Source of the DNA: Balneolaceae bacterium
GTDB lineage: Bacteria > Bacteroidota > Rhodothermia > Balneolales > Balneolaceae
DNA: 64,000 nucleotides
Direction of reading: 5' to 3'
Assembly (NCBI GenBank): GCA_017643365.1
Contig: JAEPNO010000004.1
Location: forward strand, 77,085 to 141,084
Both the position numbers and the translations under genes were made by a program. Below are positions 32,172-49,933 of this stretch, in pieces (position 1 is the stretch's first letter; each line of letters starts with the position of its first letter). Under the pieces are notes generated by a model. The model did not search any database and was not told where the DNA came from. It saw only the letters and a list, made by a program, of their open reading frames with translations.

Positions 32172-32313
32172 AACCCTTCTAGGGTTTCGATGAATATCGA
32201 ATTTCCTTCTCCTTCTTTTAGCAACCTTACTTCTTCTTTAACCCTTCTAGGGTTCCAAACCCTAGAAGGGTTAGCAAAACGAAAACGATGGATTTTAAAC
32301 CCTAGAAAGGTTG
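32172..32313. repeat. Cluster of nested palindromic intergenic repeat units (AACCCT-NNN-AGGGTT family)
   Basis: AACCCTTCTAGGGTT lies at 32172-32186. A perfect 16-bp-arm palindrome, TAACCCTTCTAGGGTT-CCA-AACCCTAGAAGGGTTA, lies at 32239-32273. The partial unit AAACCCTAGAAAGGTT lies at about 32297-32312. Confidence 0.85.
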
Positions 32314-32367
32314 TTAATTGGACAACGCATGGTTTGCAAAACCACGCTAGATTAGAACCTTTACCAA

Positions 32368-32389
32368 GTGAAGGACTTTAGTCCTTCAC
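32368..32389. repeat. Perfect 10-bp-stem hairpin just downstream of the nagX-like gene
   Basis: GTGAAGGACT-TT-AGTCCTTCAC lies 22 nt beyond the stop of the minus-strand gene that ends at 32411. Confidence 0.7.
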
Positions 32390-38780: not shown

Positions 38781-38792
38781 TTTTTTTCTTCT

Positions 38793-38825
38793 AACCTTTC
38801 CAGGTTTTTAAACCCTGGAAAGGTT
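38793..38825. repeat. Nested palindromic intergenic repeat, copy at the left edge of the metal block
   Basis: AACCTTTCCAGGTT-TTTA-AACCCTGGAAAGGTT pairs over 14 of 15 arm positions. A degenerate unit follows at about 38845-38860. Confidence 0.8.
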
Positions 38826-38903
38826 GGCGGAGAAGATTGTTAAGAACCCTGTAAAGATTGGGGGGGGGAAATTCTAGCACCCTAAATCGTTAAAATTTTG
38901 GGA

Positions 38904-40103
38904 TTAGTACATCAAGAACAGGATAATCCCAACTAAGTTTACTCCAATAAAGGTGTAGACAACACCTCGTTTAATGGGACCACTACCTTCCATATCCATC
39001 ATTTTCATGGTGTTTTCTTTCAGATATTGGCGGTTTTGCCAACTCAACCATCCTGCAATTACAACAAATACGAGGTTCATCCAAAAGGTGTAATCAATTT
39101 TAAACCGGGTAATTTCTGACACTACGCGCTCTGTTTCGGGGATGATATCCAGCCAACCGAATATACCATTCAGGATTAATGCTGTTAACACAATACTTAT
39201 ATACATAACGCCGGCAATATAAAGCGCTACACGCCATCCGTAGTATTTCGCATTGATGCTAACCAATGGTGGAACCATCAAATCGGAATAAATAAAGCCC
39301 ATTATTCCAGCAAATAAAACGCCATTACTTTGCAAAACAGTAGCCAATGGGATGTTTCCCATCGAACCAATAAAGGTTGATGCAGCCACAAAAGGTGCCA
39401 CCAAAGCGTTTTCTAAAGTGACTAGCCAATCGGGGAGATGTGTGGCATCCACTAAAAAGAGAGCTGCCCAGAAATCCTCTGGCACTAACACAGCTACAAA
39501 TCCGGCAATCGTAAAACCGATAAGAATATCTTCCCAAGCCATTTTCCAGTCGTTTACGAATTTATGGCCCACCAGCTGCCAGCCTTCTTTACTTTTAATC
39601 CGCTCTTTCCAGTTGAAGTCATCACTCATTTCCTCACCTTCATCTTCAACTTTTTCGCGAGCGGCGTTCATCCACTTTTTAGGATAAGTAAATTTGATAA
39701 TTACACTACTTATGGCGATCAAAACTAAGCCACCGACGATTTCAGCCGCCAGAAACTGCCAGCCCAAAAAAATCATAATAAGAATACCGAGCTCAATCAC
39801 CAGATTGGTGGATGCAAACATGAACGCTACAGCAGCTATAAAATGAGCTCCTTTTTTTACCAGAGCCCGTGCTGCGGCCAATGCTGCAAACGAACATGAA
39901 GACGATGCAGATCCAAAAAGGGTACTCAAAGAGATACTTTTGAAGTCTGCCTCACCCATGTATTTGGTCATACTGCCTTTTGGTACAAAGGCCTGTATCA
40001 TCCCGGAAACAAAATAGCCCAGTATAAATGCCCAGCCGGATTTCCAAAAGAAACCCAAAGCTGTTTTAGCGGATTCAGAATAGAGTTCTAAGAATTCATT
40101 CAT
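38904..40103 (-). CDS. DUF318/UPF0718-type predicted permease
   Basis: 399-aa polytopic protein with the ...GSASSSCSFAALAAARAL... motif typical of this permease family. It is the last gene of the metal operon. Confidence 0.7.
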   Translation of the reverse strand: MNEFLELYSESAKTALGFFWKSGWAFILGYFVSGMIQAFVPKGSMTKYMGEADFKSISLSTLFGSASSSCSFAALAAARALVKKGAHFIAAVAFMFASTNLVIELGILIMIFLGWQFLAAEIVGGLVLIAISSVIIKFTYPKKWMNAAREKVEDEGEEMSDDFNWKERIKSKEGWQLVGHKFVNDWKMAWEDILIGFTIAGFVAVLVPEDFWAALFLVDATHLPDWLVTLENALVAPFVAASTFIGSMGNIPLATVLQSNGVLFAGIMGFIYSDLMVPPLVSINAKYYGWRVALYIAGVMYISIVLTALILNGIFGWLDIIPETERVVSEITRFKIDYTFWMNLVFVVIAGWLSWQNRQYLKENTMKMMDMEGSGPIKRGVVYTFIGVNLVGIILFLMY

Positions 40104-40147
40104 AAATTTAAAATTTAAACTATGAACTTATACTAAGGCATTTAAAA

Positions 40148-40627
40148 TTAGTTCCTTATAGTTCTGCTTGAGCCGTGGTTTTGAATGATTTTCCATTCAC
40201 CATCAAAGTTTTTTAGTACAGATGTGGCTACTCCTTGACGTTCAACTATACGAGGTTCCTCATCATCTAAAACGATCTTGTAGGTGTACGTTTCATGAGC
40301 TACGGCCATATCACCTTCTAAGCGAATGCTTACTTCGTAATTATTAAAACTGAATTCTTTAAAATGACCTAATTCTGGCCCAATGTGATTATCCAAATAA
40401 TCCTGATAAGTGCCTTCAAATTTTCCATTTTCGAAAACGGTCGCATCCTCAGCAAATAGGTGTTGAGTATTGCTCACATCCAAATTTTCAAGTGCCGATT
40501 TGTAAGCTTTAAGTACTTCTTTTACTGCATTTTCTTTCATCATGGCTTCATGGTCGTGATCCATGTTTTGAGCAATAAGTGAAGTTGAGAAGAAGATCAA
40601 AGTGATAGTAAATAGTAAGTTTTTCAT
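40148..40627 (-). CDS. Secreted SnoaL/NTF2-like (DUF4440-like) protein with an N-terminal His/Met motif
   Basis: Signal peptide ...SLIAQ, followed by NMDHDHEAMM. The rest has NTF2-like length and pattern. Confidence 0.55.
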   Translation of the reverse strand: MKNLLFTITLIFFSTSLIAQNMDHDHEAMMKENAVKEVLKAYKSALENLDVSNTQHLFAEDATVFENGKFEGTYQDYLDNHIGPELGHFKEFSFNNYEVSIRLEGDMAVAHETYTYKIVLDDEEPRIVERQGVATSVLKNFDGEWKIIQNHGSSRTIRN

Positions 40628-40653
40628 ACTTGTATTAGGTTAGGTTTTCGAGT

Positions 40654-41724
40654 TTAAAGTTGAGTTAATTCTATTTTATCGATGAGAATAGTGCCATTAC
40701 CTTCAATTAGGAGACCAACAGCGCCGGGGTTAGGGGCATCACCGTGGCCATGTACCACCATTTCTTGATTGATGTATCCTCTGAAATGAGTTCCATCGCC
40801 AACTACTCGGATGAAGAGCACTCCGGTTTGATAGGTTGATGAAGATTCGAAAATGGTGTCATTGCCATTAATTACTCTGCCTTGAATAACAGTTCTATCA
40901 GAATCTATCGAGACATAGTCATAATTGTCCATATCAACGAAATGATGCATCAATTTGACGGAACCAGACAAATCATCCATGTTTAGATATGCATCCAATT
41001 GGATGTTTTGATAACTGGAGTGAGTCACAAATGAATTGATGGCATCCTTTAAGCTAAGTTGCAGCAGATGATTTTGATTGGATTGCAAAGTGATAGGAGA
41101 GAGATCACTCACAGAACCTGAAACCCAATGAAAATTTTGAAGTAACTCAGAAACACCGTTTTTGCTAATCGTCCATTTCCATTTGTCATTTGTGTCATAA
41201 ATAAATGACGAAGAACTTGATGTAACGAGACTATCAGTACTCAGCGATTCTTCAAGCTCATTCGACAGAAGCTGACCGGTTCCTGCTCCATATCCATAAA
41301 CCATTTTGCCACCATACTCTCCAGTTTCATACAAAAAGAAAAGTCCCGGTAGTGCTAAAAAGACCATCACTACTTTGATAGCTTTCCGATTAATTAAATC
41401 GAATCTATGTAGAATTACTCTCAGCACACTATAAAGCCCAAAAAACCAGACTGTCCAAAGTGCCCAATCGGCATGTTCGGTTAAAACGGTTTGAGCTTCG
41501 GTAACTAAGAAAATAGAGTCCGCAGCTGATTTCCCTGTGTAGAATACTGCAATAGCACTGATCGAGGCTAAAATATAGAGTAGTGTGTTTTTTTGTTCAT
41601 CCCACCATTTTTCAGACACAAAAAGCGAGGCTATACTCATTCCAAAGGCTAGAATTATTAATGCAATTGGAAAATGAATAACTAGCGGGTGAATATTGGG
41701 AGCCCATTCAGGTAGAAATTCCAT
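40654..41724 (-). CDS. DUF2231-like membrane domain fused to a beta-sandwich (DUF1080/LamG-like) domain
   Basis: The N-terminal WAPNIHPLVIHFPIALI plus 4 TM segments is DUF2231-like. The C-terminal ~190 aa are beta-rich and end ...GAVGLLIEGNGTILIDKIELTQL. Confidence 0.55.
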   Translation of the reverse strand: MEFLPEWAPNIHPLVIHFPIALIILAFGMSIASLFVSEKWWDEQKNTLLYILASISAIAVFYTGKSAADSIFLVTEAQTVLTEHADWALWTVWFFGLYSVLRVILHRFDLINRKAIKVVMVFLALPGLFFLYETGEYGGKMVYGYGAGTGQLLSNELEESLSTDSLVTSSSSSFIYDTNDKWKWTISKNGVSELLQNFHWVSGSVSDLSPITLQSNQNHLLQLSLKDAINSFVTHSSYQNIQLDAYLNMDDLSGSVKLMHHFVDMDNYDYVSIDSDRTVIQGRVINGNDTIFESSSTYQTGVLFIRVVGDGTHFRGYINQEMVVHGHGDAPNPGAVGLLIEGNGTILIDKIELTQL

Positions 41725-41760
41725 AGTATTTGATATTTAAATTAATCAGTTAGTAATAGA

Positions 41761-42276
41761 TTAGTCGATCTTCTCAACCGTTTCGCCACATTTGTGCATC
41801 ATCTGCCCGTAAAATGGGTTGGCAATTTTCTCTTCGTTACTGATCCATTTCGCACCTTTTCCGTTGTTGGCCATTGGACAAAACTGCACATACAACGAAG
41901 GATGCTCGTAATTTTGATTTTCAAGCGCTGTTAATAATTCTTTGGAGAGATCGGCAAAAACAACACGGAAATCTGCAATCGTTTCAGCACTATCAGCCTT
42001 TGAAACTGCGGTGAGCATCATGCCATGATGGTTTTGATGTTTCGCTGCATGCTCTTGATGATTATTCATTTCATCGTTGTTGCGAACTTCCTTGGCAAAC
42101 TTAGTAAAAGCAGTTTTAGCTTGATCAAATTCATCTTGAACGAGGGCGCTTTTCATAACCAAATAATGTTCAACCAACACATCTAGGTGCTTATTATGGC
42201 TATGTGATTCATGTTGAGCATTCGCCGATTGTATTGCAAAAAGTGAAGTAAAGAATAGGATGTATAGAGTTTTCAT
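41761..42276 (-). CDS. DUF3347 domain protein (periplasmic, His-rich)
   Basis: Signal peptide, then HESHSHNKH, NHQEHAAKHQNHHGMM, and a C-terminal YVQFCPMANNGKGAKWISNEEKIANPFYGQMMHKCGE. Confidence 0.7.
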   Translation of the reverse strand: MKTLYILFFTSLFAIQSANAQHESHSHNKHLDVLVEHYLVMKSALVQDEFDQAKTAFTKFAKEVRNNDEMNNHQEHAAKHQNHHGMMLTAVSKADSAETIADFRVVFADLSKELLTALENQNYEHPSLYVQFCPMANNGKGAKWISNEEKIANPFYGQMMHKCGETVEKID

Positions 42277-42293
42277 AAGAAGAAGTATTTAGA

Positions 42294-44087
42294 TTAAAAT
42301 TCAATTTTGGTTATGGTTTCGCCGCAGTTATGCATTTGAGAACCGAAGTACGGGTTGGCAATTTCTTCTTGTTCACTTAACCAATAAGCGCCTTCACCGT
42401 CGTTACTCATTGGGCAAAATTGTTGGTAAAACACGCCGTTTATTTCGAAGTGCTTCACCACTTCAATTAATTTTGGAGAGAGTTTTGAAAATGCAGCTCT
42501 TTGTTTGTCGATTGGGTTACCTGAAATTTCTTTGATGTGAGTGGTTAATTCACTCAGAAACCTCATCCATTCAAGATGAGTGTCTCCTTTAAGTAGAGCC
42601 ATATCTACCTCAGAAAGGCTGTTTAGCATCTCTGTTGCAGAGGCGGAAGCTTGATTGCTGTTAGATTCAACAAAGGCGTCTTTCATCGACAGATAGTGAG
42701 AAACAACATCCTTTAGCTGATTCTTGAATTCTTCCGGAATTGTTGAAGCGTGTTGAGTTTGATGATCGGAATGGTCTTGAGTAGTGCTTGGAGTATTTTC
42801 CGGCATGGCATGCCCTTCGTGACCGCTTCGATTTGCCCCCGAGCCCGGTGTTCGATTCATCATGCTTAATTTATCTGCGAGTTGAGCGGCGCTATCCAGT
42901 TTGAATGTGCCGTTGGTTACCACTCGTTCGCCTTCACCTAAGCCTTCCAAAACTATAAACTGATTGCCAACACGTTCGCCTAATACAACTTCACGAGCGG
43001 TAAAAGTAGGTTCCTCAGTATTTGGCTCTTCTACAAAAACGATCGATCGGGTTCCTGTCCACATAACGGCAGAGCGAGGTATTAACAGCTGCTTTTCTTT
43101 GTTACTCGCTGTTATTACACCTTCAACCAACATATTTGGTTTGAGTTGAAGTGATGGATTTTCAGCTTGAACTCGAATTTCAACGGTTCGGCGAGCATTG
43201 TCTACCATCGGATTGATGTAGTCCACCATTCCGGTGAATGTTCTACCCGGATAAGAAGCGGTGGTGAATTCGATATTCTGACCGTTGCTTATCTTCGCGA
43301 TGTCTTGCTCAAACACATCAAACAGCACCCAAACCGAGGTTAAATCAACAATTTGATACATCAAAGAACCGGCTATCACGTGTTGCTCTCGATCCACAAA
43401 AATGCTCTCAACATAGCCTGAAACGGGCGAAACGATGTCCACACTTTCCATCACTTGCTTACTTTCTTCGATTTCATCAATCGTAGATATCGGCAGCTCC
43501 CAGAGCTCGAGTTTACGTCGCGCCGCATTATAGAGCGTTGGATTCTGATTTTTTACCTTCGCGGTTTCCAGCAATTCCTGCTGCGCAGCCATCAACTCAG
43601 GAGAATATATCGAGGCCATTCGTTGACCTTTTTCCACAAAATCACCCTCAAAATCTACATACAAATCAATTATCCGGCCCTTTAGGTGAGAGGTGACTGA
43701 CGAACTATTATTCCAGTTGATACTCACTTTTCCGGGTAACCGAATTTCCTCGCTTGCAATAGCAGAAATTACAGGAGTTGTTTCGATTTCAGCCAGACCC
43801 ACAGCGGCTTCGCTCAGCACAAGACTGTTCGGGTTTTCACTCACGTTGTTATCATCTGCAGGGATTAAGTCCATTCCACAAATTGGGCAGTTTCCCGGCT
43901 CGTTTTGCCGGATTTGCGGATGCATACTACACGTGTATACAATCTCGCCGGCTTCGTTGGTATGCACTTCAGCAATATGTTCGTCCAGAGATTGAGGTTC
44001 TGATTCCCCACCAAAAAGCCATGCGCCTATAACCACACCGGCTAATCCGAAGATCGCCATCAATAAATAAGAGTACTTTGTATTCAT
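42294..44087 (-). CDS. RND efflux periplasmic adaptor (CusB/CzcB-like) with an N-terminal heavy-metal-binding domain and a C-terminal DUF3347 fusion
   Basis: The ATG at 44087 gives MNTKYSYLLMAIFG.... YTCSMHPQIRQNEPGNCPICGMDL is the metal-binding domain. A membrane-fusion core follows, then a His-rich linker (HEGHAMPEN...DHSDHQTQH) and a tail QQFCPMSNDGEGAYWLSEQEEIANPYFGSQMHNCGE. Confidence 0.85.
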   Translation of the reverse strand: MNTKYSYLLMAIFGLAGVVIGAWLFGGESEPQSLDEHIAEVHTNEAGEIVYTCSMHPQIRQNEPGNCPICGMDLIPADDNNVSENPNSLVLSEAAVGLAEIETTPVISAIASEEIRLPGKVSINWNNSSSVTSHLKGRIIDLYVDFEGDFVEKGQRMASIYSPELMAAQQELLETAKVKNQNPTLYNAARRKLELWELPISTIDEIEESKQVMESVDIVSPVSGYVESIFVDREQHVIAGSLMYQIVDLTSVWVLFDVFEQDIAKISNGQNIEFTTASYPGRTFTGMVDYINPMVDNARRTVEIRVQAENPSLQLKPNMLVEGVITASNKEKQLLIPRSAVMWTGTRSIVFVEEPNTEEPTFTAREVVLGERVGNQFIVLEGLGEGERVVTNGTFKLDSAAQLADKLSMMNRTPGSGANRSGHEGHAMPENTPSTTQDHSDHQTQHASTIPEEFKNQLKDVVSHYLSMKDAFVESNSNQASASATEMLNSLSEVDMALLKGDTHLEWMRFLSELTTHIKEISGNPIDKQRAAFSKLSPKLIEVVKHFEINGVFYQQFCPMSNDGEGAYWLSEQEEIANPYFGSQMHNCGETITKIEF

Positions 44088-44097
44088 GATTGTTGTT

Positions 44098-45378
44098 TTA
44101 GTAATTAATATCCTGCATTGAGACGTTGTTGCTACCGGATAGGTAATCGAGCCGGGCAACCACTTTAAATTGATCGGTTTTAGCTTTTATTCGCTCCAGT
44201 TCATATTCAAAAAGCTTTCGCTGTAATCGAAGTATTTCTTCAAAATCGGAATTATCGGTGGCGTACGATTGGAGCATGATATTTACAGCCTGTTGCACAC
44301 GATAAATTTGTTGTTCGTCGTACAATTCGTACCTGCGTTGTGCATCCCGAAGAGCTCGAATCTCTGCAATTACAGCTTGTTCAAGTTGGTTAGTTCGATC
44401 AGAAATTCGATCGCGACTTGCGGAAAGTGCATACGTTGCTTCTTGAGTTTTCGCTCGGTTTTTTGCTCTGAAAAGAGGCACTTTTATGTTCAGTCGGGCA
44501 ATTACTGCATCTCTTCCGTTATCCGCTAAGGTTGGTACATCGGTTCGTTCTCCGGTGGCAATGTAGTCGAGCCCAACACCAAAACTTGGTTTATTCTGGT
44601 TCGATGCATTCTCCACATCCACTTCTGCTTTCTGCTCTAATAAGCGCAAACGATGAATATCCGGGTTGTTTGAAATTACTTGTTCTCGGATTTCTTTTTC
44701 ACGAGAGCTTATGCCATTTGATTCTTGAAGTGCTTTCGGAACTGTAACTTCTGAATGAAGAGGTGCATTTCGCAGTTTGTTAAAAGCACTCATCACTATT
44801 TCCAGGTCATCTTCAAGCAAAGCGATGTTAGTTTTTAAATCTTCTTGCTCGATCTGAGCACGCAACACATCAACCTGAGGTACGAGTCCGGTTTCGTATT
44901 TTCGAAGACTCACGTTCACCAGCGTGTTTACGATCTCCAGGTTTTCTTTTGCTAATCGGATTTTCTCAGTGGCTTCAAATAGCTCTGCCCAAAGGACTTC
45001 CATTTGGTAAAAAAGCTGATTTCTGGTTTCACGGAAATGCTCAAATTTCGCCTTCGCTGCAAGTAAGCGACCTGATACATTTTGTTTACGAGTGCCAAAC
45101 CAAGGCAACATTTGTGTTACTGAAATCCGAGCCTGTTGGGGTCCCAATCTAGTTTCAACCGGACGAACGAACCATGCGAAGCTCAGCTCGGGATCGGGTA
45201 GGGCTCCAACTTGCGGAACTTGTTCTAAGGCAGACAAATACTCAAAATACACCGCCCGTAATTGTGGATTATTTTGAGCAGCTTCGATCTTATAATCATC
45301 AAGATTTTGAGCAAATCCCGTTTGAACGAAGACTCCCACCCATAAAACCGATGAGATAATTTTTAGTTTGATGTTCAT
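44098..45378 (-). CDS. TolC-family outer-membrane efflux protein
   Basis: 426 aa with a signal peptide and paired coiled-coil repeats. Its start forms an ATGA overlap with the pump gene's stop. Confidence 0.8.
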   Translation of the reverse strand: MNIKLKIISSVLWVGVFVQTGFAQNLDDYKIEAAQNNPQLRAVYFEYLSALEQVPQVGALPDPELSFAWFVRPVETRLGPQQARISVTQMLPWFGTRKQNVSGRLLAAKAKFEHFRETRNQLFYQMEVLWAELFEATEKIRLAKENLEIVNTLVNVSLRKYETGLVPQVDVLRAQIEQEDLKTNIALLEDDLEIVMSAFNKLRNAPLHSEVTVPKALQESNGISSREKEIREQVISNNPDIHRLRLLEQKAEVDVENASNQNKPSFGVGLDYIATGERTDVPTLADNGRDAVIARLNIKVPLFRAKNRAKTQEATYALSASRDRISDRTNQLEQAVIAEIRALRDAQRRYELYDEQQIYRVQQAVNIMLQSYATDNSDFEEILRLQRKLFEYELERIKAKTDQFKVVARLDYLSGSNNVSMQDINY

Positions 45379-48300
45379 TTCTTCAAACTCCTTTTGAGGT
45401 TAATTTCTTTCCAAAAAGCGTAGAGCACCGGCACTACAAAAAGTGTGATAATCTGTAGCATCATCCCGCCAACACTTGGAATAGCCATGGGAACCATGAT
45501 ATCAGCGCCGCGCCCGGTTGAGGTTAGCACAGGCAAAAGTGCCAAAATGGTAGTAGCGGTGGTCATCAAGGTCGGACGAATTCTTCTTGAACTCGCTTCA
45601 ATAACTACTGCTTTGATCGATTCTTTAGATTGAGGATTCTTTTTATCGAACAATTGGTCGAGGTAGGTAGCCATAACCACTCCGCCATCAGACGCGATGC
45701 CGAACAACGCGATAAAACCAACCCAAACGGCAACACTTAGGTTGATGGATCCCATTTGGAAGAGATCACGCATATTCTGGCCGAACAGTTCAAAATTCAA
45801 AAACCAGGGCTCGCCGTACAACCACACCAAAATAAATCCCCCGGCCCAGGCCACAAAAATGGAGGTGAAAATCATGCCCGTAGTGGCCGCAGATTTAAAC
45901 TGAAAATACATCACCAGAAAAATGGCCAGCAGAGCGATAGGTAAAATTATACCGAGGCGTTTCTCTGCCCGAACCTGATTTTCATAATTTCCTGCAAACT
46001 CAAAACTGATTCCGGGAGGCACCACTAGAGAACCATCATCGATAAATTGCTGAATAGTTTGCTGTGCATTTTCAACTACTTCTACTTCTGCAAAGGCATC
46101 CGTTTTATCAAAAATAACGTAGCCAATCAGGAAAGTATCTTCACTTTTAATGGCTTGTGGACCTCGTCGAAATTCGATGTTTGCCAATTGTGAAAGTGGA
46201 ATCTGAGTTCCGGTTTTGGTAGGCACTAATAACTCAGAAATTGCTTCCGGACTGTCTCTGAATTCTCGGGCAAATCGAACCCGAATAGGATATCGCTCTC
46301 TGCCTTCGTTGGAAGTTGAAACCGGCATCCCGCCAATACCAACGGTAACAAAATGCTGCACATCCTGCATGGTAAGTCCGTAACGCGCAAGTTGTTCTCG
46401 ATTCCAATCGATTTCTAAATAGGGCTTGCCAACAATTCGATCAGCAAAAACAGACGATGGATTGACGCCCGGAGTTTGTTTCAGTGCTTCCTCGAGTTGA
46501 AGTCCGAATGCTTCGATGGTTTCCAGGTCGGGGCCTTTTACTTTAATCCCCATCGGAGCTCTCATTCCTGATTGGAGCATCACCAAACGCGTTTGGATGG
46601 GCTGCAATTTTGGAGCTGAAGTGGTGCCCGGAATCTTGGCTGCAGCTATGATTTCATTCCAAATATCATCGGGAGATTGAATATGATCTCGCCATTGTCG
46701 GTAGTACTTTCCATCAGAATCGGGAATCAACTCACCTGCTCCATCGAATACAAACTCGCCATTTTCATCAACTTTAAAACGAATTCTTCGACCGTCTGCA
46801 TCTGTTTTATATTCCGATTTATATTCGATCAGATTTTCATACATCGAGATGGGAGCGGGGTCGAGGGCAGAATTGGTGCGTCCCATTTTACCAACCACGT
46901 ATTCAACTTCAGGAATAGCGGAAACGGCCATATCGATTTTTTGCATCACGTCCATGGCTTCTTCTACACCGGCATGAGGCATGGTGGTTGGCATCAGCAG
47001 GAATGCGCCTTCATCCAAAGCAGGCATAAATTCTTTGCCAAGACCGGGGAATTTTTCTTCAACCGTCGACCAAGCTCGTGTGTTTTCTAGTCCGGTTTTT
47101 CCGATGAAGTTGAAAACAGAGCCAAAGCCCAGCCATATAACCACGCCTAGCATCACTAAAAAAGTAGGGATGGATAAAAAGGCGATTTTGTGATCCAGGC
47201 ACCACGAAATGAGCGTTTCGTAGTATCGAATCACCACCCAGAAAATGGCTAAGATCAAGCCAATCAACAGAATTACGAAGAATAAATTCCAGCTGAAGGC
47301 AGCAGCGGGTCCGAGTGGAAGCCAATATTGAGTAAGGAGCCAGGTTACAATAATCACACTCAAGGCATTATTTAGGAAAATGGCTTTTTTACTATAGTCT
47401 TGGTCCAGAAATACCGTCAGTCCGTTAATCACTCCAAAGCTCATGATGGCAAATCCAGCCCAAATTGGTCCAACAAAAAGTATTACGATTCCTCCAAATA
47501 CTAAAAGAGCGTTCCAGCAAAATTTAATCCATCGTTTTTGAATGCGGAACGAAAATAACCAGTGCGCAAATGGAGGGATAAGTGTGATGGCAATGATGAT
47601 GGAAGCAATAAGCGCGAAGGTTTTAGTGTAGGCCAGCGGTTTGAACAATTTACCCTCGGAAGCCACCATCGTAAAAACGGGCAGAAAACTAATGATAGTT
47701 GTGGTTACCGCAGTCAACACAGCCGAAGCAACTTCGGTGGTTGCGGTGTAAATGACTTCAAGCAATGATTCTTGGTCGGTCTTATTTTCGATGTGCCGCA
47801 GCATATTCTCAGACAGAATCACACCCATATCTACGATAGTTCCGATTGCGATGGCAATTCCGGAAAGTGCCACGATGTTTGCATCTACCCCCCCGTATTT
47901 CATGGCGATGAAGGTCATGAGCACCGCGATGGGCAACATCGCCGAAATGAGGAAAGAAGTGCGCAAATTCATCACCATGATCACAATTACGATGATGGTG
48001 ATTAGTATTTGAAGCGTAAGTGCTTCCTCTAAAGTGCCTAAGGTTTCGCCTATCAATTCTGAGCGGTCGTAAAAGGGCACGATCGTGACTTTAGAAGTTC
48101 GTCCATCGACCAATTCTTTGGAGGGTAAACCCGCACTTATTTCTTCGATCTTGGCTTTAACATTATCAATAACTGCCTGGGGATTTGCTCCCTGCCTTGC
48201 AACTACCACAGCGCCAACTGCTTCGGCTCCGGCTTTGTCTAAGGCTCCACGCCGCATCGCCGGACCCATGGTAACGAAAGCCACATCTTTGAGTCTGATG

Positions 48301-49118
48301 GGCGTGTTATCTACAACTTTTACTACCGATTGTTCAAGATCATCCAGGCTTTGAATGTATCCTAATCCACGAACCAGATATTCAGCATTATTGAGCTCGA
48401 TGGTACGTGCGCCCACATCCACATTGCTTTTTCGAACAGCATCAAAAATCTCGGTAAGCGAAATCCCATAATTTTGTAGTGTGATTGGGCTCACTTCTAT
48501 TTGATATTCCTTCACAAATCCGCCGATTGGAGCAACTTCGGCTACACCCTGAGCGCCAGAAAGCGCGTAGCCAACAAAATAATCCTGAATGGATCTTAAT
48601 TCCTGTAAATCCCAACCACCGGCAGGTTTCCCCTATGCATCGCGACCTTCAAGTGTGTACCAGAAAACTTGTCCTAGTGCAGTGGCATCAGGTCCTAAAG
48701 CCGGTTGAACGCCATCGGGGAGAGTACCGCCCGGTAAAGAGTTTAATTTTTCGAGAATACGTGAACGACTCCAGTAGAACTCGACATCCTCTTCAAAAAT
48801 CACATAAATGCTAGAAAAGCCCAAGATTGAAGAACTGCGAATCGTTTTTACTCCTGGAACGGTGAGCAACTGAGTGGTTAAAGGATAGGTGATCTGATCC
48901 TCCACATCCTGTGGCGATTGACCGGCCCATTCGGTGTATACAATTTGTTGATTTTCGCCCAGATCAGGAATGGCATCGACCGGAACGGGGTCGCTGGGCA
49001 GGGCTCCAATATTCCAGCCGAAAGGTGAAACAACCATTCCCCAGCCTACCAGAAGCAAGAGCAGGAGAACAGCAACGAGCTTGTTCTCGAGAAAGAAACG
49101 TATGGTTTTATTAAGCAT
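45375..49118 (-). pseudogene. CusA/CzcA-family heavy-metal RND efflux pump interrupted by one in-frame TAG (codon 162 of about 1247)
   Basis: ORFs 48633..49118 and 45375..48515 are in the same frame (48635-48515=120). The 39 codons between them translate as GKPAGGWDLQELRSIQDYFVGYALSGAQGVAEVAPIGGF, which continues the RND sequence into VKEYQIEV. Confidence 0.8.
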
Positions 49119-49236
49119 GATTTGTTGATTTAGCCAAGGCTGAAATTATCAGCAGATGTAAGAATTCCGAGGCGCAGAATAATCCTGAATGGTGGACAAT
49201 CTTAGCAGGAAGTAGTTCAGAGATTGAACGTAGTGG

Positions 49237-49530
49237 CTAGATCAGAAAGGCTTCGTTGGAGAGAAAGAGAGAGGGCGGTGAATAGGACGCAGAATTCCAA
49301 AGGGGAGGAGGAAAAGCTTCGTTTGAATCAGAAAGCGTAAGAATTTCGATCAAGAGATCGCTAGAAATCTGAGCTTTTAGAGTCAATGTTTGTGTTAAAA
49401 CCGTTGACGGCGGGATATCAGATTTTTGTGTGATGATGCAATTACAATCGATATTGATGGAGCAATGTTCTGAACCATCATCAGTAGTTGGCTTTTCCGC
49501 GGAAGCATTAGTGCTATCGCAATGAGCCAT
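49237..49530 (-). CDS. Hypothetical Cys/His- and Ser-rich 97-aa ORF between the Met-rich micro-ORF and the pump gene
   Basis: This is an ORF-track entry containing HCD and HCSINIDCNC clusters. It has no signal peptide and a low-complexity tail, so its coding status is uncertain. Confidence 0.3.
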   Translation of the reverse strand: MAHCDSTNASAEKPTTDDGSEHCSINIDCNCIITQKSDIPPSTVLTQTLTLKAQISSDLLIEILTLSDSNEAFPPPLWNSASYSPPSLFLSNEAFLI

Positions 49531-49542
49531 CGAATCGGTTTG

Positions 49543-49719
49543 CTAAGTATTCATTTCAGCATGCAAACTCATTTCGGAGTGCATTTGCATCATAGAGCTT
49601 GTCTCCGACATATCCATTCCGCACCAAAGCATCATTGCCTGGGCAGGAACAATCATGGTAACGCTTAAGACGATACTTAAAATTGTAAGTAATCCGGTAT
49701 GTGATCGAAGAATTTTCAC
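49543..49719 (-). CDS. Unannotated 58-codon ORF: signal peptide plus Met-rich peptide
   Basis: Hand translation from the GTG at 49719 gives VKILRSHTGLLTILSIVLSVTMIVPAQA|MMLWCGMDMSETSSMMQMHSEMSLHAEMNT, ending at TAG 49543-49545. It is too short for the ORF track and sits first in the metal operon. Confidence 0.45.
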   Translation of the reverse strand: MKILRSHTGLLTILSIVLSVTMIVPAQAMMLWCGMDMSETSSMMQMHSEMSLHAEMNT

Positions 49720-49811
49720 GAAGCGAATGTAGTAAATCTAAACGTCAAGCTCCATCATCCGAAAAATCTTATACGCTTTTGTGATAAAAATGTACATGGC
49801 GAGAAAAGAAT

Positions 49812-49836
49812 GGTTCCAACGCAGAGCATTGGAACC
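49812..49836. repeat. Hairpin related to the palindromic repeat family
   Basis: GGTTCCAA-cgcagagca-TTGGAACC has an 8-bp stem. Confidence 0.6.
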
Positions 49837-49847
49837 GGATGATGAAT

Positions 49848-49913
49848 AACCTTACTAGGGTTTTAAACCCTAGTAAGGTTGGTAAGATAAAAGTTTTAAA
49901 CCTTGGCAAGGTT
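49848..49913. repeat. Nested palindromic intergenic repeat, copies at the right edge of the metal block
   Basis: A perfect 15-bp-arm palindrome, AACCTTACTAGGGTT-TTA-AACCCTAGTAAGGTT, lies at 49848-49880. AACCTTGGCAAGGTT lies at 49899-49913. Confidence 0.85.
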
Positions 49914-49933
49914 GGAAAAAGAGATTGGAAACT

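Follow-up and report, generated by a model that had tools for sequence, protein, structure and literature searches.

What are the paired palindromes that stand between genes in a 64,000-nt stretch of a Balneolaceae bacterium (contig JAEPNO010000004.1 of assembly GCA_017643365.1): signals belonging to the genes beside them, or mobile DNA? The stretch, referred to here as the window, corresponds to C44:77085-141084 of an assembly of 3.77 Mb, 41% GC and 51 contigs (G000). A sequence-only reading had placed paired palindromes at 32239, 38793 and 49848 and solo or degenerate units at 32172, about 32297, about 38845 and 49899, and had likened them to repetitive extragenic palindromes (REPs). The sequences read as claimed at the paired sites, the solo units are present (the second at 32298, that at 38845 degenerate), and the REP-like interpretation is supported. 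The elements are very probably miniature non-autonomous DNA elements of the REP type, including inverted doublets that form hairpins (REPINs), orphaned in this genome after the loss of a REP-associated tyrosine transposase (RAYT).

The basic unit is a 15-nt REP, AACCYT-N3-ARGGTT, which forms a 6-bp hairpin with a 3-nt loop. A REPIN consists of two such units, inverted and 3 nt apart, giving 33 nt that can fold as one hairpin of 15-16 bp or as two small ones. The window contains 10 matches to AACCYTNNNARGGTT (≤1 mismatch), against 0.73 ± 0.83 in dinucleotide shuffles, and none of 100 shuffles reached 10. As single-stranded DNA (ssDNA), doublets 1 to 3 fold into 14-16-bp hairpins at -16.5, -12.1 and -14.8 kcal/mol (z = -8.3, -5.2 and -6.7), and the singlets reach -3.7 to -4.2 kcal/mol. 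Site 1 separates convergent genes for a metallophosphoesterase and an HGSNAT-like acyltransferase, and site 2 between an amidase gene and a convergent gene for an ArsP-type permease. Site 3 is found just 3′ of a minus-strand T9SS (type IX secretion system) amidase gene, upstream of that gene's own terminator-like hairpin and of a metal-efflux operon. Coordinates are collected in Table 1.

Table 1. Elements of the palindrome family and associated features; plain numbers are window positions, and C and L numbers denote contigs and fetched loci
Feature	Location	Strand	Sequence	Remarks
REP singlet	32172..32186		AACCCTTCTAGGGTT	6-bp stem, 3-nt loop; DNA fold -4.2 kcal/mol
REPIN 1, inverted REP doublet	32239-32273		T-AACCCTTCTAGGGTT-CCA-AACCCTAGAAGGGTT-A	Triplet TCT/AGA; 16-bp stem including flanking T/A
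REP singlet	32298..32312		AACCCTAGAAAGGTT	Direct orientation relative to right arm of REPIN 1; partly decayed; weak fold
Unrelated hairpin	32368..32389		GTGAAGGACT-TT-AGTCCTTCAC	Within inserted intergenic block of site 1; outside AACCYT family
REPIN 2	38793..38825		AACCTTTCCAGGTT-TTTA-AACCCTGGAAAGGTT	Triplet TCC/GGA; 1-nt deletion in left arm
Degenerate REP singlet	38845..38859		AACCCTGTAAAGATT	G007 orthologue better kept, AACCCTAGAAAGGTT
Terminator-like hairpin of T9SS amidase gene	49812..49836	-	GGTTCCAATGCTCTGCGTTGGAACC	T-rich tail; outside repeat family
REPIN 3	49848..49880		AACCTTACTAGGGTT-TTA-AACCCTAGTAAGGTT	Triplet ACT/AGT; feet AACCTT..AGGGTT / AACCCT..AAGGTT
REP singlet	49899..49913		AACCTTGGCAAGGTT	None in orthologous G007 spacer
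Doublet sites, whole genome	C1:15722; C12:2967; C12:4894; three window sites; C48:54933; C48:176605; C51:137260
Second RAYT-like gene, intact, 197 aa	C33:115368-115961 (L135:1483-2076)			NHYH, YIHQNP, SS tail
In-frame copies, other phyla	L076:4442; L079:261; L104:906; L039:381; L060:2646; L052:6065; L112:1723

The genome-wide search that the sequence-only reading had called for returned further copies. The assembly contains 19 exact units, against two for a reversed-pattern control, and nine doublets with the exact 18-nt register, for which the control gave no cluster. Three of the nine doublets fall within 17.7 kb of the window. A unit search at 2 mismatches was dominated by noise (512 real against 802 control matches) and was not used. 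The family is low-copy, not the high-copy REP family that might have been envisaged. All copies in this genome are intergenic, in agreement with the extragenic character of REP and REPIN elements. The claim that every copy sits just beyond the 3′ end of a gene applies to the three window sites and fails at C12:2967, which lies between divergent genes.

The history of the partner gene can be read from a sister species, G007, with about 88-91% DNA identity to the present genome. In G007 an EamA gene is followed by a REPIN (AACCCATCCAGGTT-CTA-AACCCTGGATGGGTT), a RAYT gene (201 aa; motifs NHFH and YIHWNP), a second REPIN (AACCCTTCCAGGGTT-TAG-AACCCTGGAAGGGTT) and a ROK kinase gene. The same EamA and ROK flanks occur in the present genome at C48:175627-177391, enclosing a single REPIN, AACCCATCCAGGGTT-TTA-AACCCTGGAAGGGTT (C48:176605), and no gene. 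Its left arm bears AACCCA, with the diagnostic A of the left REPIN of G007; its right arm and flank match the right REPIN of G007, and the join is an uncompensated A.A mismatch. This REPIN is the chimeric scar expected of deletion or excision between two REPINs.

The only RAYT-like gene in the assembly is that on C33, which belongs to an unrelated clade and has no such flanks, and therefore the REPINs of this genome are orphans. The search for a RAYT suggested by the sequence-only reading thus had a divided outcome, with no cognate gene in the genome itself and a cognate gene in relatives. The C33 gene groups in one clade with genes of G017 and G010 (54-58% identity) and may be a domesticated or solitary copy. 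It was rejected as the partner on account of its different clade and the absence of the motif, or of any comparable palindrome, from its flanks. An IS200 copy at C44:160078 (NF033573) was also rejected, there being no motif nearby. Elsewhere on C33, a Y1_Tnp-like stretch (50.9 bits) at 94827-95129 (L134) lies inside an open frame of >1,095 aa resembling a restriction/methylase-type protein.

The association of palindrome and RAYT extends well beyond this pair of species. It emerged while in-frame copies were being checked, when one open frame hosting a copy proved to encode a Y1 HUH protein. A tblastn search with the RAYT-like protein of the present genome then located a RAYT-like gene beside the motif in nine of about 120 loci fetched by the motif alone (among the matches listed). 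With relatives included, 11 RAYT genes have units no more than 110 nt away, with seven or more flanked on both sides; several also carry an in-frame copy inside the gene, between the HUH and Tyr motifs. A RAYT flanked by the 33-mer is found in G007 and at 10 further loci, from at least five phyla (Bacteroidota, Balneolota, Ignavibacteriota, Chloroflexota and Lentisphaerota). When the 684 open reading frames within 1.5 kb of the motif were clustered all against all, RAYT was the largest recurrent family. The transposase that the sequence-only reading had proposed exists, and in relatives it is physically flanked by the palindromes.

The NCBIfam model NF047646 (REP_Tyr_transpos) aligns to these proteins over positions 7-146 of 146 at 57-66 bits, below its equivalog cut-off of 80 bits, and for PF01797, with its cut-off of 23, the scores are 23-26 bits. 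A profile of 16 family members had a sole match in the PDB, the E. coli TnpA-REP structure 4ER8 (E = 6e-6); a PDB search with the single G007 sequence gave no match. The motifs NH[FYL]H and YIHxNP are conserved in the alignment. Related RAYTs share the 15+3+15 design with other feet, AACTTT/AAAGTT and AGACCT/AGGTYT, and the variants AACTTTGCCAAAGTC-CCT-GACTTTGGCAAAGTT and AGACCTGACAGGTTT-TCA-AAACCTGTCAGGTCT were found independently of the search pattern; REP and RAYT vary together. A single origin of the palindrome-flanked RAYTs was rejected, as the tree gives at least two supported clades and members without a resolved position. Elsewhere, at L096:440-866, a cas2-like gene that immediately follows the C-terminus of cas1 has a REPIN (GAC/GTC) on each side.

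Three congeners (G005, G003 and G010), with about 75% DNA identity and identical gene order at the three window sites, are empty at all of them. At site 1 their spacer is 58 nt, against about 250 nt in the present genome, where REPIN 1 lies within an insertion of about 200 nt. At site 2 the convergent permease gene of the congeners is within about 5 nt of the amidase stop. At site 3 only the homologous native hairpin is found in G003 and G010, and an A/T-rich spacer of similar length in G005. Relative to these congeners each of the three window sites is an insertion, and REPIN 3 was inserted between the stop codon and a pre-existing terminator-like hairpin. The placement at "three operon boundaries", to which the sequence-only reading had drawn attention, is incidental, as three congeners have the identical gene order without the elements. 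Within the genus sample the motif occurs only in the present genome and G007, and the cognate RAYT only in G007, a distribution which fits one acquisition in the common ancestor of the two.

Between these two genomes the elements have diverged to different degrees. REPIN 1 is identical over 33/33 nt and the orthologue of REPIN 2 is intact in G007. The orthologue of REPIN 3 has TCC/GGA in G007 against ACT/AGT here, amounting to two compensated double changes. One G007 REPIN is without a counterpart in the present genome, and one doublet of the present genome is a singlet in G007. The singlet at 32172 has a degenerate counterpart in G007 and none in the three congeners, and two direct units stand in G007 at the counterpart of the singlet at 32298. 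The unrelated hairpin at 32368 is kept in G007, with none in the outgroup intergenic region. A run of nine G residues (38860-38868) directly follows the degenerate singlet of site 2; it is absent from the G007 orthologue.

By analogy with the TnpA of IS200/IS605 and E. coli TnpA-REP, mobilisation would most likely occur in trans, on ssDNA, by a RAYT-type Y1 HUH/Tyr enzyme. Such an enzyme would recognise the hairpin, then cleave and rejoin the DNA beside it. The common ancestor of the two species would have acquired the RAYT and seeded some 8-10 sites, with G007 retaining the gene between two REPINs. In the present genome, recombination or excision between the two bracketing REPINs would have removed the gene. 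A single chimeric REPIN would remain at the site, along with a low-copy population, orphaned and in slow decay, that has three members in the window.

Several observations weigh against this account. Most sites are orthologous between the two species, at about 88% DNA identity, giving no sign of recent transposition in the present genome. Copy numbers are very low (1-13 per genome), unlike those of classical REPIN populations. A whole-assembly search with the G007 RAYT found no cognate gene in the present genome, only the C33 gene of the other clade, at 35% identity. Of 22 motif-bearing genomes from the phylum sample described below, eight have no RAYT-like gene at E ≤ 1e-15. Inspection of the 25-nt flanks of 133 copies revealed no conserved tetranucleotide, GT[AG]G and CGTC included; the feet are AACC.../...GGTT instead of a guide tetranucleotide.

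The sequence-only reading had also taken the family to be lineage-specific, which proved wrong, the identical 33-mer design being present in many phyla. A cross-phylum scan with the exact pattern, in which the central triplets and four Y/R positions were left free and one genome per species was used, found at least 120 loci matching the 33-mer exactly, where chance would give, by estimate, about 0.07 in 596 Gb. Going by record titles, the hosts among the matches listed include Bacteroidota of many orders, Balneolales (Gracilimonas, Rhodohalobacter), Ignavibacteria, Kapaibacteria, Kryptoniota, KSB1, Calditrichaceae, Neomarinimicrobiota, Gemmatimonadota, Chloroflexota, Poribacteria and Lentisphaeria. 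The 33-mer (≤2 mismatches) occurs in 7 of 41 relatives, with none for the reversed control. In an even sample of the phylum it is carried by 22 of 301 genomes, with 1-13 doublets each and the control at zero throughout. A RAYT-like gene is found in 14/22 motif-positive against 64/279 motif-negative genomes of this sample, figures which are indicative only, as related genomes are not independent.

The central triplet tends to be genome-specific: TCC/GGA in the present genome and G007, CCA/TGG in G020, G223 and G264, CCG/CGG in 13 copies in G297, and GTC/GAC in G242. Among the matches listed there are 101 distinct copies, representing 24 triplet classes; in 91 of them every one of the three free triplet pairs is Watson-Crick, against about 1.6 expected. 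In the same set the two cross-arm Y/R pairs are complementary in 100/101 and 98/101 copies, and the in-arm Y/R pair in 90/101. The compensation between arms described for the window is therefore real and general, and the description of each arm as itself a palindrome also stands. A single long hairpin would not need the in-arm match, and each 15-mer is therefore itself a constrained palindrome. This constraint is consistent with a unit hairpin, the REP, duplicated in inverted orientation to give the REPIN. The compensation would then reflect a requirement for the hairpin in mobilisation. In the copies from across the collection, doublets with mixed feet are asymmetric, a T.G wobble falling in the 5′ unit eight times and the reciprocal type occurring once. 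The hairpin of the 5′ unit may matter more, or the asymmetry may come from the relatedness of copies.

The compensatory changes might also be a mechanical product of intrastrand template switching, or of one copy replacing another, in which case the covariation would say nothing about function. Template switching of this kind is a well-established source of mutation, known as quasipalindrome correction, in which one arm serves as template for the other. REPIN 3 has changed at two triplet positions on both arms beside flanks that are about 88% identical, which is fast for independent compensation. Its ACT/AGT triplet has no donor copy elsewhere in the genome, so that self-templating fits better than conversion. 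Such an origin of the covariation is rather unlikely. Template switching leaves unexplained the conservation of the AACCYT/ARGGTT feet across phyla, the internal palindromy of each arm, and the persistence of decayed singlets and of the mismatched chimeric REPIN without correction. It bears solely on what may be concluded from covariation, and not on the identity of the elements as REPs and REPINs.

A bolder proposal is that REPIN pairs serve as portable boundaries of cassettes, within a horizontally travelling, insertion sequence (IS)-like REPtron common to many phyla, so that the DNA between two REPINs is excised, deleted or carried along. As a general description this is rather unlikely. 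The RAYT itself is one candidate for such a REPIN-bounded cassette, the others being a VapBC pair and a block of 2.9 kb in G007. The G007 block (L149:5871-8884, G007:C8) encodes a beta-lactamase-like serine hydrolase and an amidohydrolase between two REPINs, where the present genome has a single REPIN (C51:137260); a DNA search of five congeners did not find the two-gene block. The VapBC-like pair, a 64-aa antitoxin and a 129-aa PIN toxin, lies between two REPINs (CCA/TGG) at L017:5939-6824 and L033:3705-4591. The cassette is 85% identical over 1.14 kb between a metagenome-assembled genome (MAG) labelled Chitinophagaceae and a Rhodohalobacter MAG, which suggests that the cassette, bounded by REPINs, moved horizontally, unless one of the MAGs was misbinned. 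If the proposal were true, these elements would be more than junk hairpins: a cassette-boundary element would drive the gain and loss of gene blocks and 11-codon in-frame insertions in essential genes.

The 11-kb heavy-metal efflux block between two amidase genes (38781-49933) is missing only in G007, where both REPIN clusters remain, about 190 nt apart. The block is syntenic in G005, G003 and G010; it is therefore ancestral and was deleted in G007, and the REPINs came later at its edges. The REPINs were accordingly rejected as ends of a recently inserted metal-efflux island, and the G007 deletion did not run from REPIN to REPIN, since both clusters survive.

The in-frame insertions are found in other phyla. 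There the 33-mer, equal to 11 codons, lies in frame in MetH (twice), a Cu-ATPase, two Ser/Thr kinases, a histidine kinase, CarB and T9SS-tailed proteins, and is read as peptides such as QPSEGFKPSEGY, QPCEGSKPSQGY, EPSKGFKPFEGY and NLEKVLNLRKV. The two MetH inserts, from a Gemmatimonadota MAG and a Saprospiraceae MAG, occupy the same loop. The sequence-only reading had held that its interpretation would be weakened if the elements lay inside a conserved coding frame in relatives. Copies within coding frames do exist, in distant taxa, in the form of in-frame insertions into unrelated genes. Such insertions support mobility and give no argument for a coding origin.

Whatever their origin, the hairpins could primarily be host RNA signals (terminators, insulators or stabilisers of mRNA 3′ ends) kept because selection acts on RNA structure. 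Each of the three window sites is 3′ of a gene end, between convergent genes or in a 3′ untranslated region, and among the matches listed from other genomes the motif is over-represented between convergent genes (30) and under-represented between divergent ones (12). Orthologous REPINs are also well conserved between the two sister species, as the unchanged REPIN 1 illustrates, and REPs of E. coli are reported to stabilise upstream mRNA (PMC6006769). Against this, both strands of all three REPINs lack a T/U tract, and a scan for terminator-like hairpins called none of them, although it did call the native hairpin at 49836-49812, which has homologues in G007 and the outgroups G003 and G010. An intrinsic terminator was rejected on these grounds. 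With no U-tract, and with the site 3 element placed before a pre-existing terminator-like hairpin, the suggestion that the elements act as terminators is unlikely to describe their primary function. Three congeners manage the same genes in the same order without them, and at site 2 the ancestral arrangement was a pair of directly adjoining convergent genes. The family is further represented in a divergent promoter region (C12:2967) and by in-frame copies within genes, and the sequence recurs next to a transposase across phyla. A primary RNA function is improbable; the elements may have a secondary, exapted effect at the 3′ ends of the mRNAs beside them.

It is highly improbable that a dimeric regulator, or a nucleoid or segregation protein, uses the 15-bp dyads as operators in double-stranded DNA, with the doublets as paired operators. 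The 6-3-6 dyad is a typical operator geometry, the in-arm symmetry is widespread in the listed copies, and the elements are few and clustered, as seen from the three doublets in 17.7 kb. The spacer triplet of an operator need not be the reverse complement of that of its neighbour, yet it is so in 91/101 listed copies. In addition, syntenic loci in congeners are without the sites, copies stand in frame in unrelated genes, and no regulator family recurs beside the motif, the recurrent neighbour being the RAYT. The attC sites of integrons are R′′/R′ core sites (RYYYAAC ... GTTRRRY) in an imperfect 55-140-nt palindrome with extrahelical bases, arranged in arrays beside an IntI integrase. This identity was rejected, as the flanks GTTAGCA, GTTGGCG and GTTGGTA misfit GTTRRRY, the element is a perfect 33-nt palindrome, and no recombinase family recurs among the neighbours (no integron-specific model was run). 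A scan of 31-51 kb with Rfam gave only two chance-level matches to miRNA models, at 25 bits against gathering scores of 70 and 99.

As REPs and REPINs, the elements may be compared with the described REPIN-RAYT systems, or REPtrons, represented by the REPs and bacterial interspersed mosaic elements (BIMEs) of E. coli with TnpA-REP (4ER8) and by the REPINs of Pseudomonas (Nunvar 2010; Bertels & Rainey 2011, PMC3116915). The likeness lies in a short hairpin unit, doublets of inverted units evolving as a hairpin, a largely extragenic distribution biased to 3′ ends, a homologous HUH/Tyr gene bracketed by repeats, and orphan populations after loss of the RAYT. Unlike those systems, the present family has no GT[AG]G or CGTC tag, its doublet has a 3-nt spacer and a total of 33 nt against roughly 60-110 nt, and each genome holds 1-13 copies against tens to hundreds. 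Its repeat sequence is common to many phyla, in contrast to the species-specific classical REPs, and its RAYT scores below the NCBIfam equivalog cut-off.

The nearest printed description appears to be that of the elements of RAYT subclasses 2.4 and 2.6. Subclass 2.4 of TnpA-Y1 (Bertels group 4) is found in Cyanobacteria, Bacteroidetes and various phyla, with "double foot" REPs and in-frame REPs within tnpAREP (Quentin, Siguier, Chandler & Fichant 2018, PMC6006769). Subclass 2.6 (group 5), from Bacteroidetes, has "atypical secondary structures" flanking the gene and a few copies elsewhere in the genome (PMC6006769). The 16-mers flanking group 4 genes were also of low abundance, with only about 14 occurrences (Bertels 2017, PMC5581495). 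The present family is likened to these subclasses by description rather than by placement in a tree: they share the motifs NH[IFV]H and YIxNNP / YIH[QN]NP, a length of about 180-200 aa, hosts among Bacteroidetes and assorted other groups, in-frame REPs in tnpAREP between the HuH and Tyr motifs, and a low copy number. The "double foot" REPs of PMC6006769 could be explained as an inverted dimer with its centre deleted. The difference from subclass 2.4 lies in the feet, GT[AG]G/C[TC]AC there and AACCYT/ARGGTT here. The AACCYT sequences, exact 15-mers included, were not found in the literature searched, including those supplements of PMC6006769 that were examined. Nor did that literature yield anything specific on a link between RAYT and Cas9.

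Two further systems offer partial parallels. With the "peel and paste" transposons of the IS200/IS605 family (IS608, ISDra2) the present system shares the Y1 HUH fold (PF01797), the subterminal DNA hairpins used for recognition, and the absence of terminal inverted repeats and of evident target duplications. It differs in that the hairpins proliferate alone as 33-nt units, and one and the same palindrome forms both of its ends, in place of a left end distinct from the right; the genuine IS200 of the genome has no relation to the motif. Rickettsia palindromic elements (RPEs) are likewise palindromic mobile DNA able to sit in frame within functional protein genes. Unlike the present elements, RPEs are 100-150 bp long, confined to Rickettsia and without a known dedicated transposase; the window copies, for their part, are all intergenic.

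To our knowledge, REPIN-RAYT systems have been studied almost wholly in Proteobacteria, in the form of GTAG-tagged, high-copy, species-specific repeats. The present case departs from them in being untagged, 33 nt long, of very low copy number and of a sequence common to Bacteroidota, Balneolota, Ignavibacteriota, Chloroflexota and others. The pair formed by this genome and G007 is a clean natural experiment on a REPIN population after transposase loss, with the deletion scar still visible. For annotation, the palindromes beside the peptidoglycan-salvage and metal-efflux genes are no operon signals and give no mark of a recent insertion of the metal block, and in otherwise ordinary proteins the 33-mer may show up as an insert of 11 residues, such as QPSEGFKPSEGY. 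The three hairpins of the window are best seen as what is left of a selfish element of a known kind, and not as a new regulatory signal.

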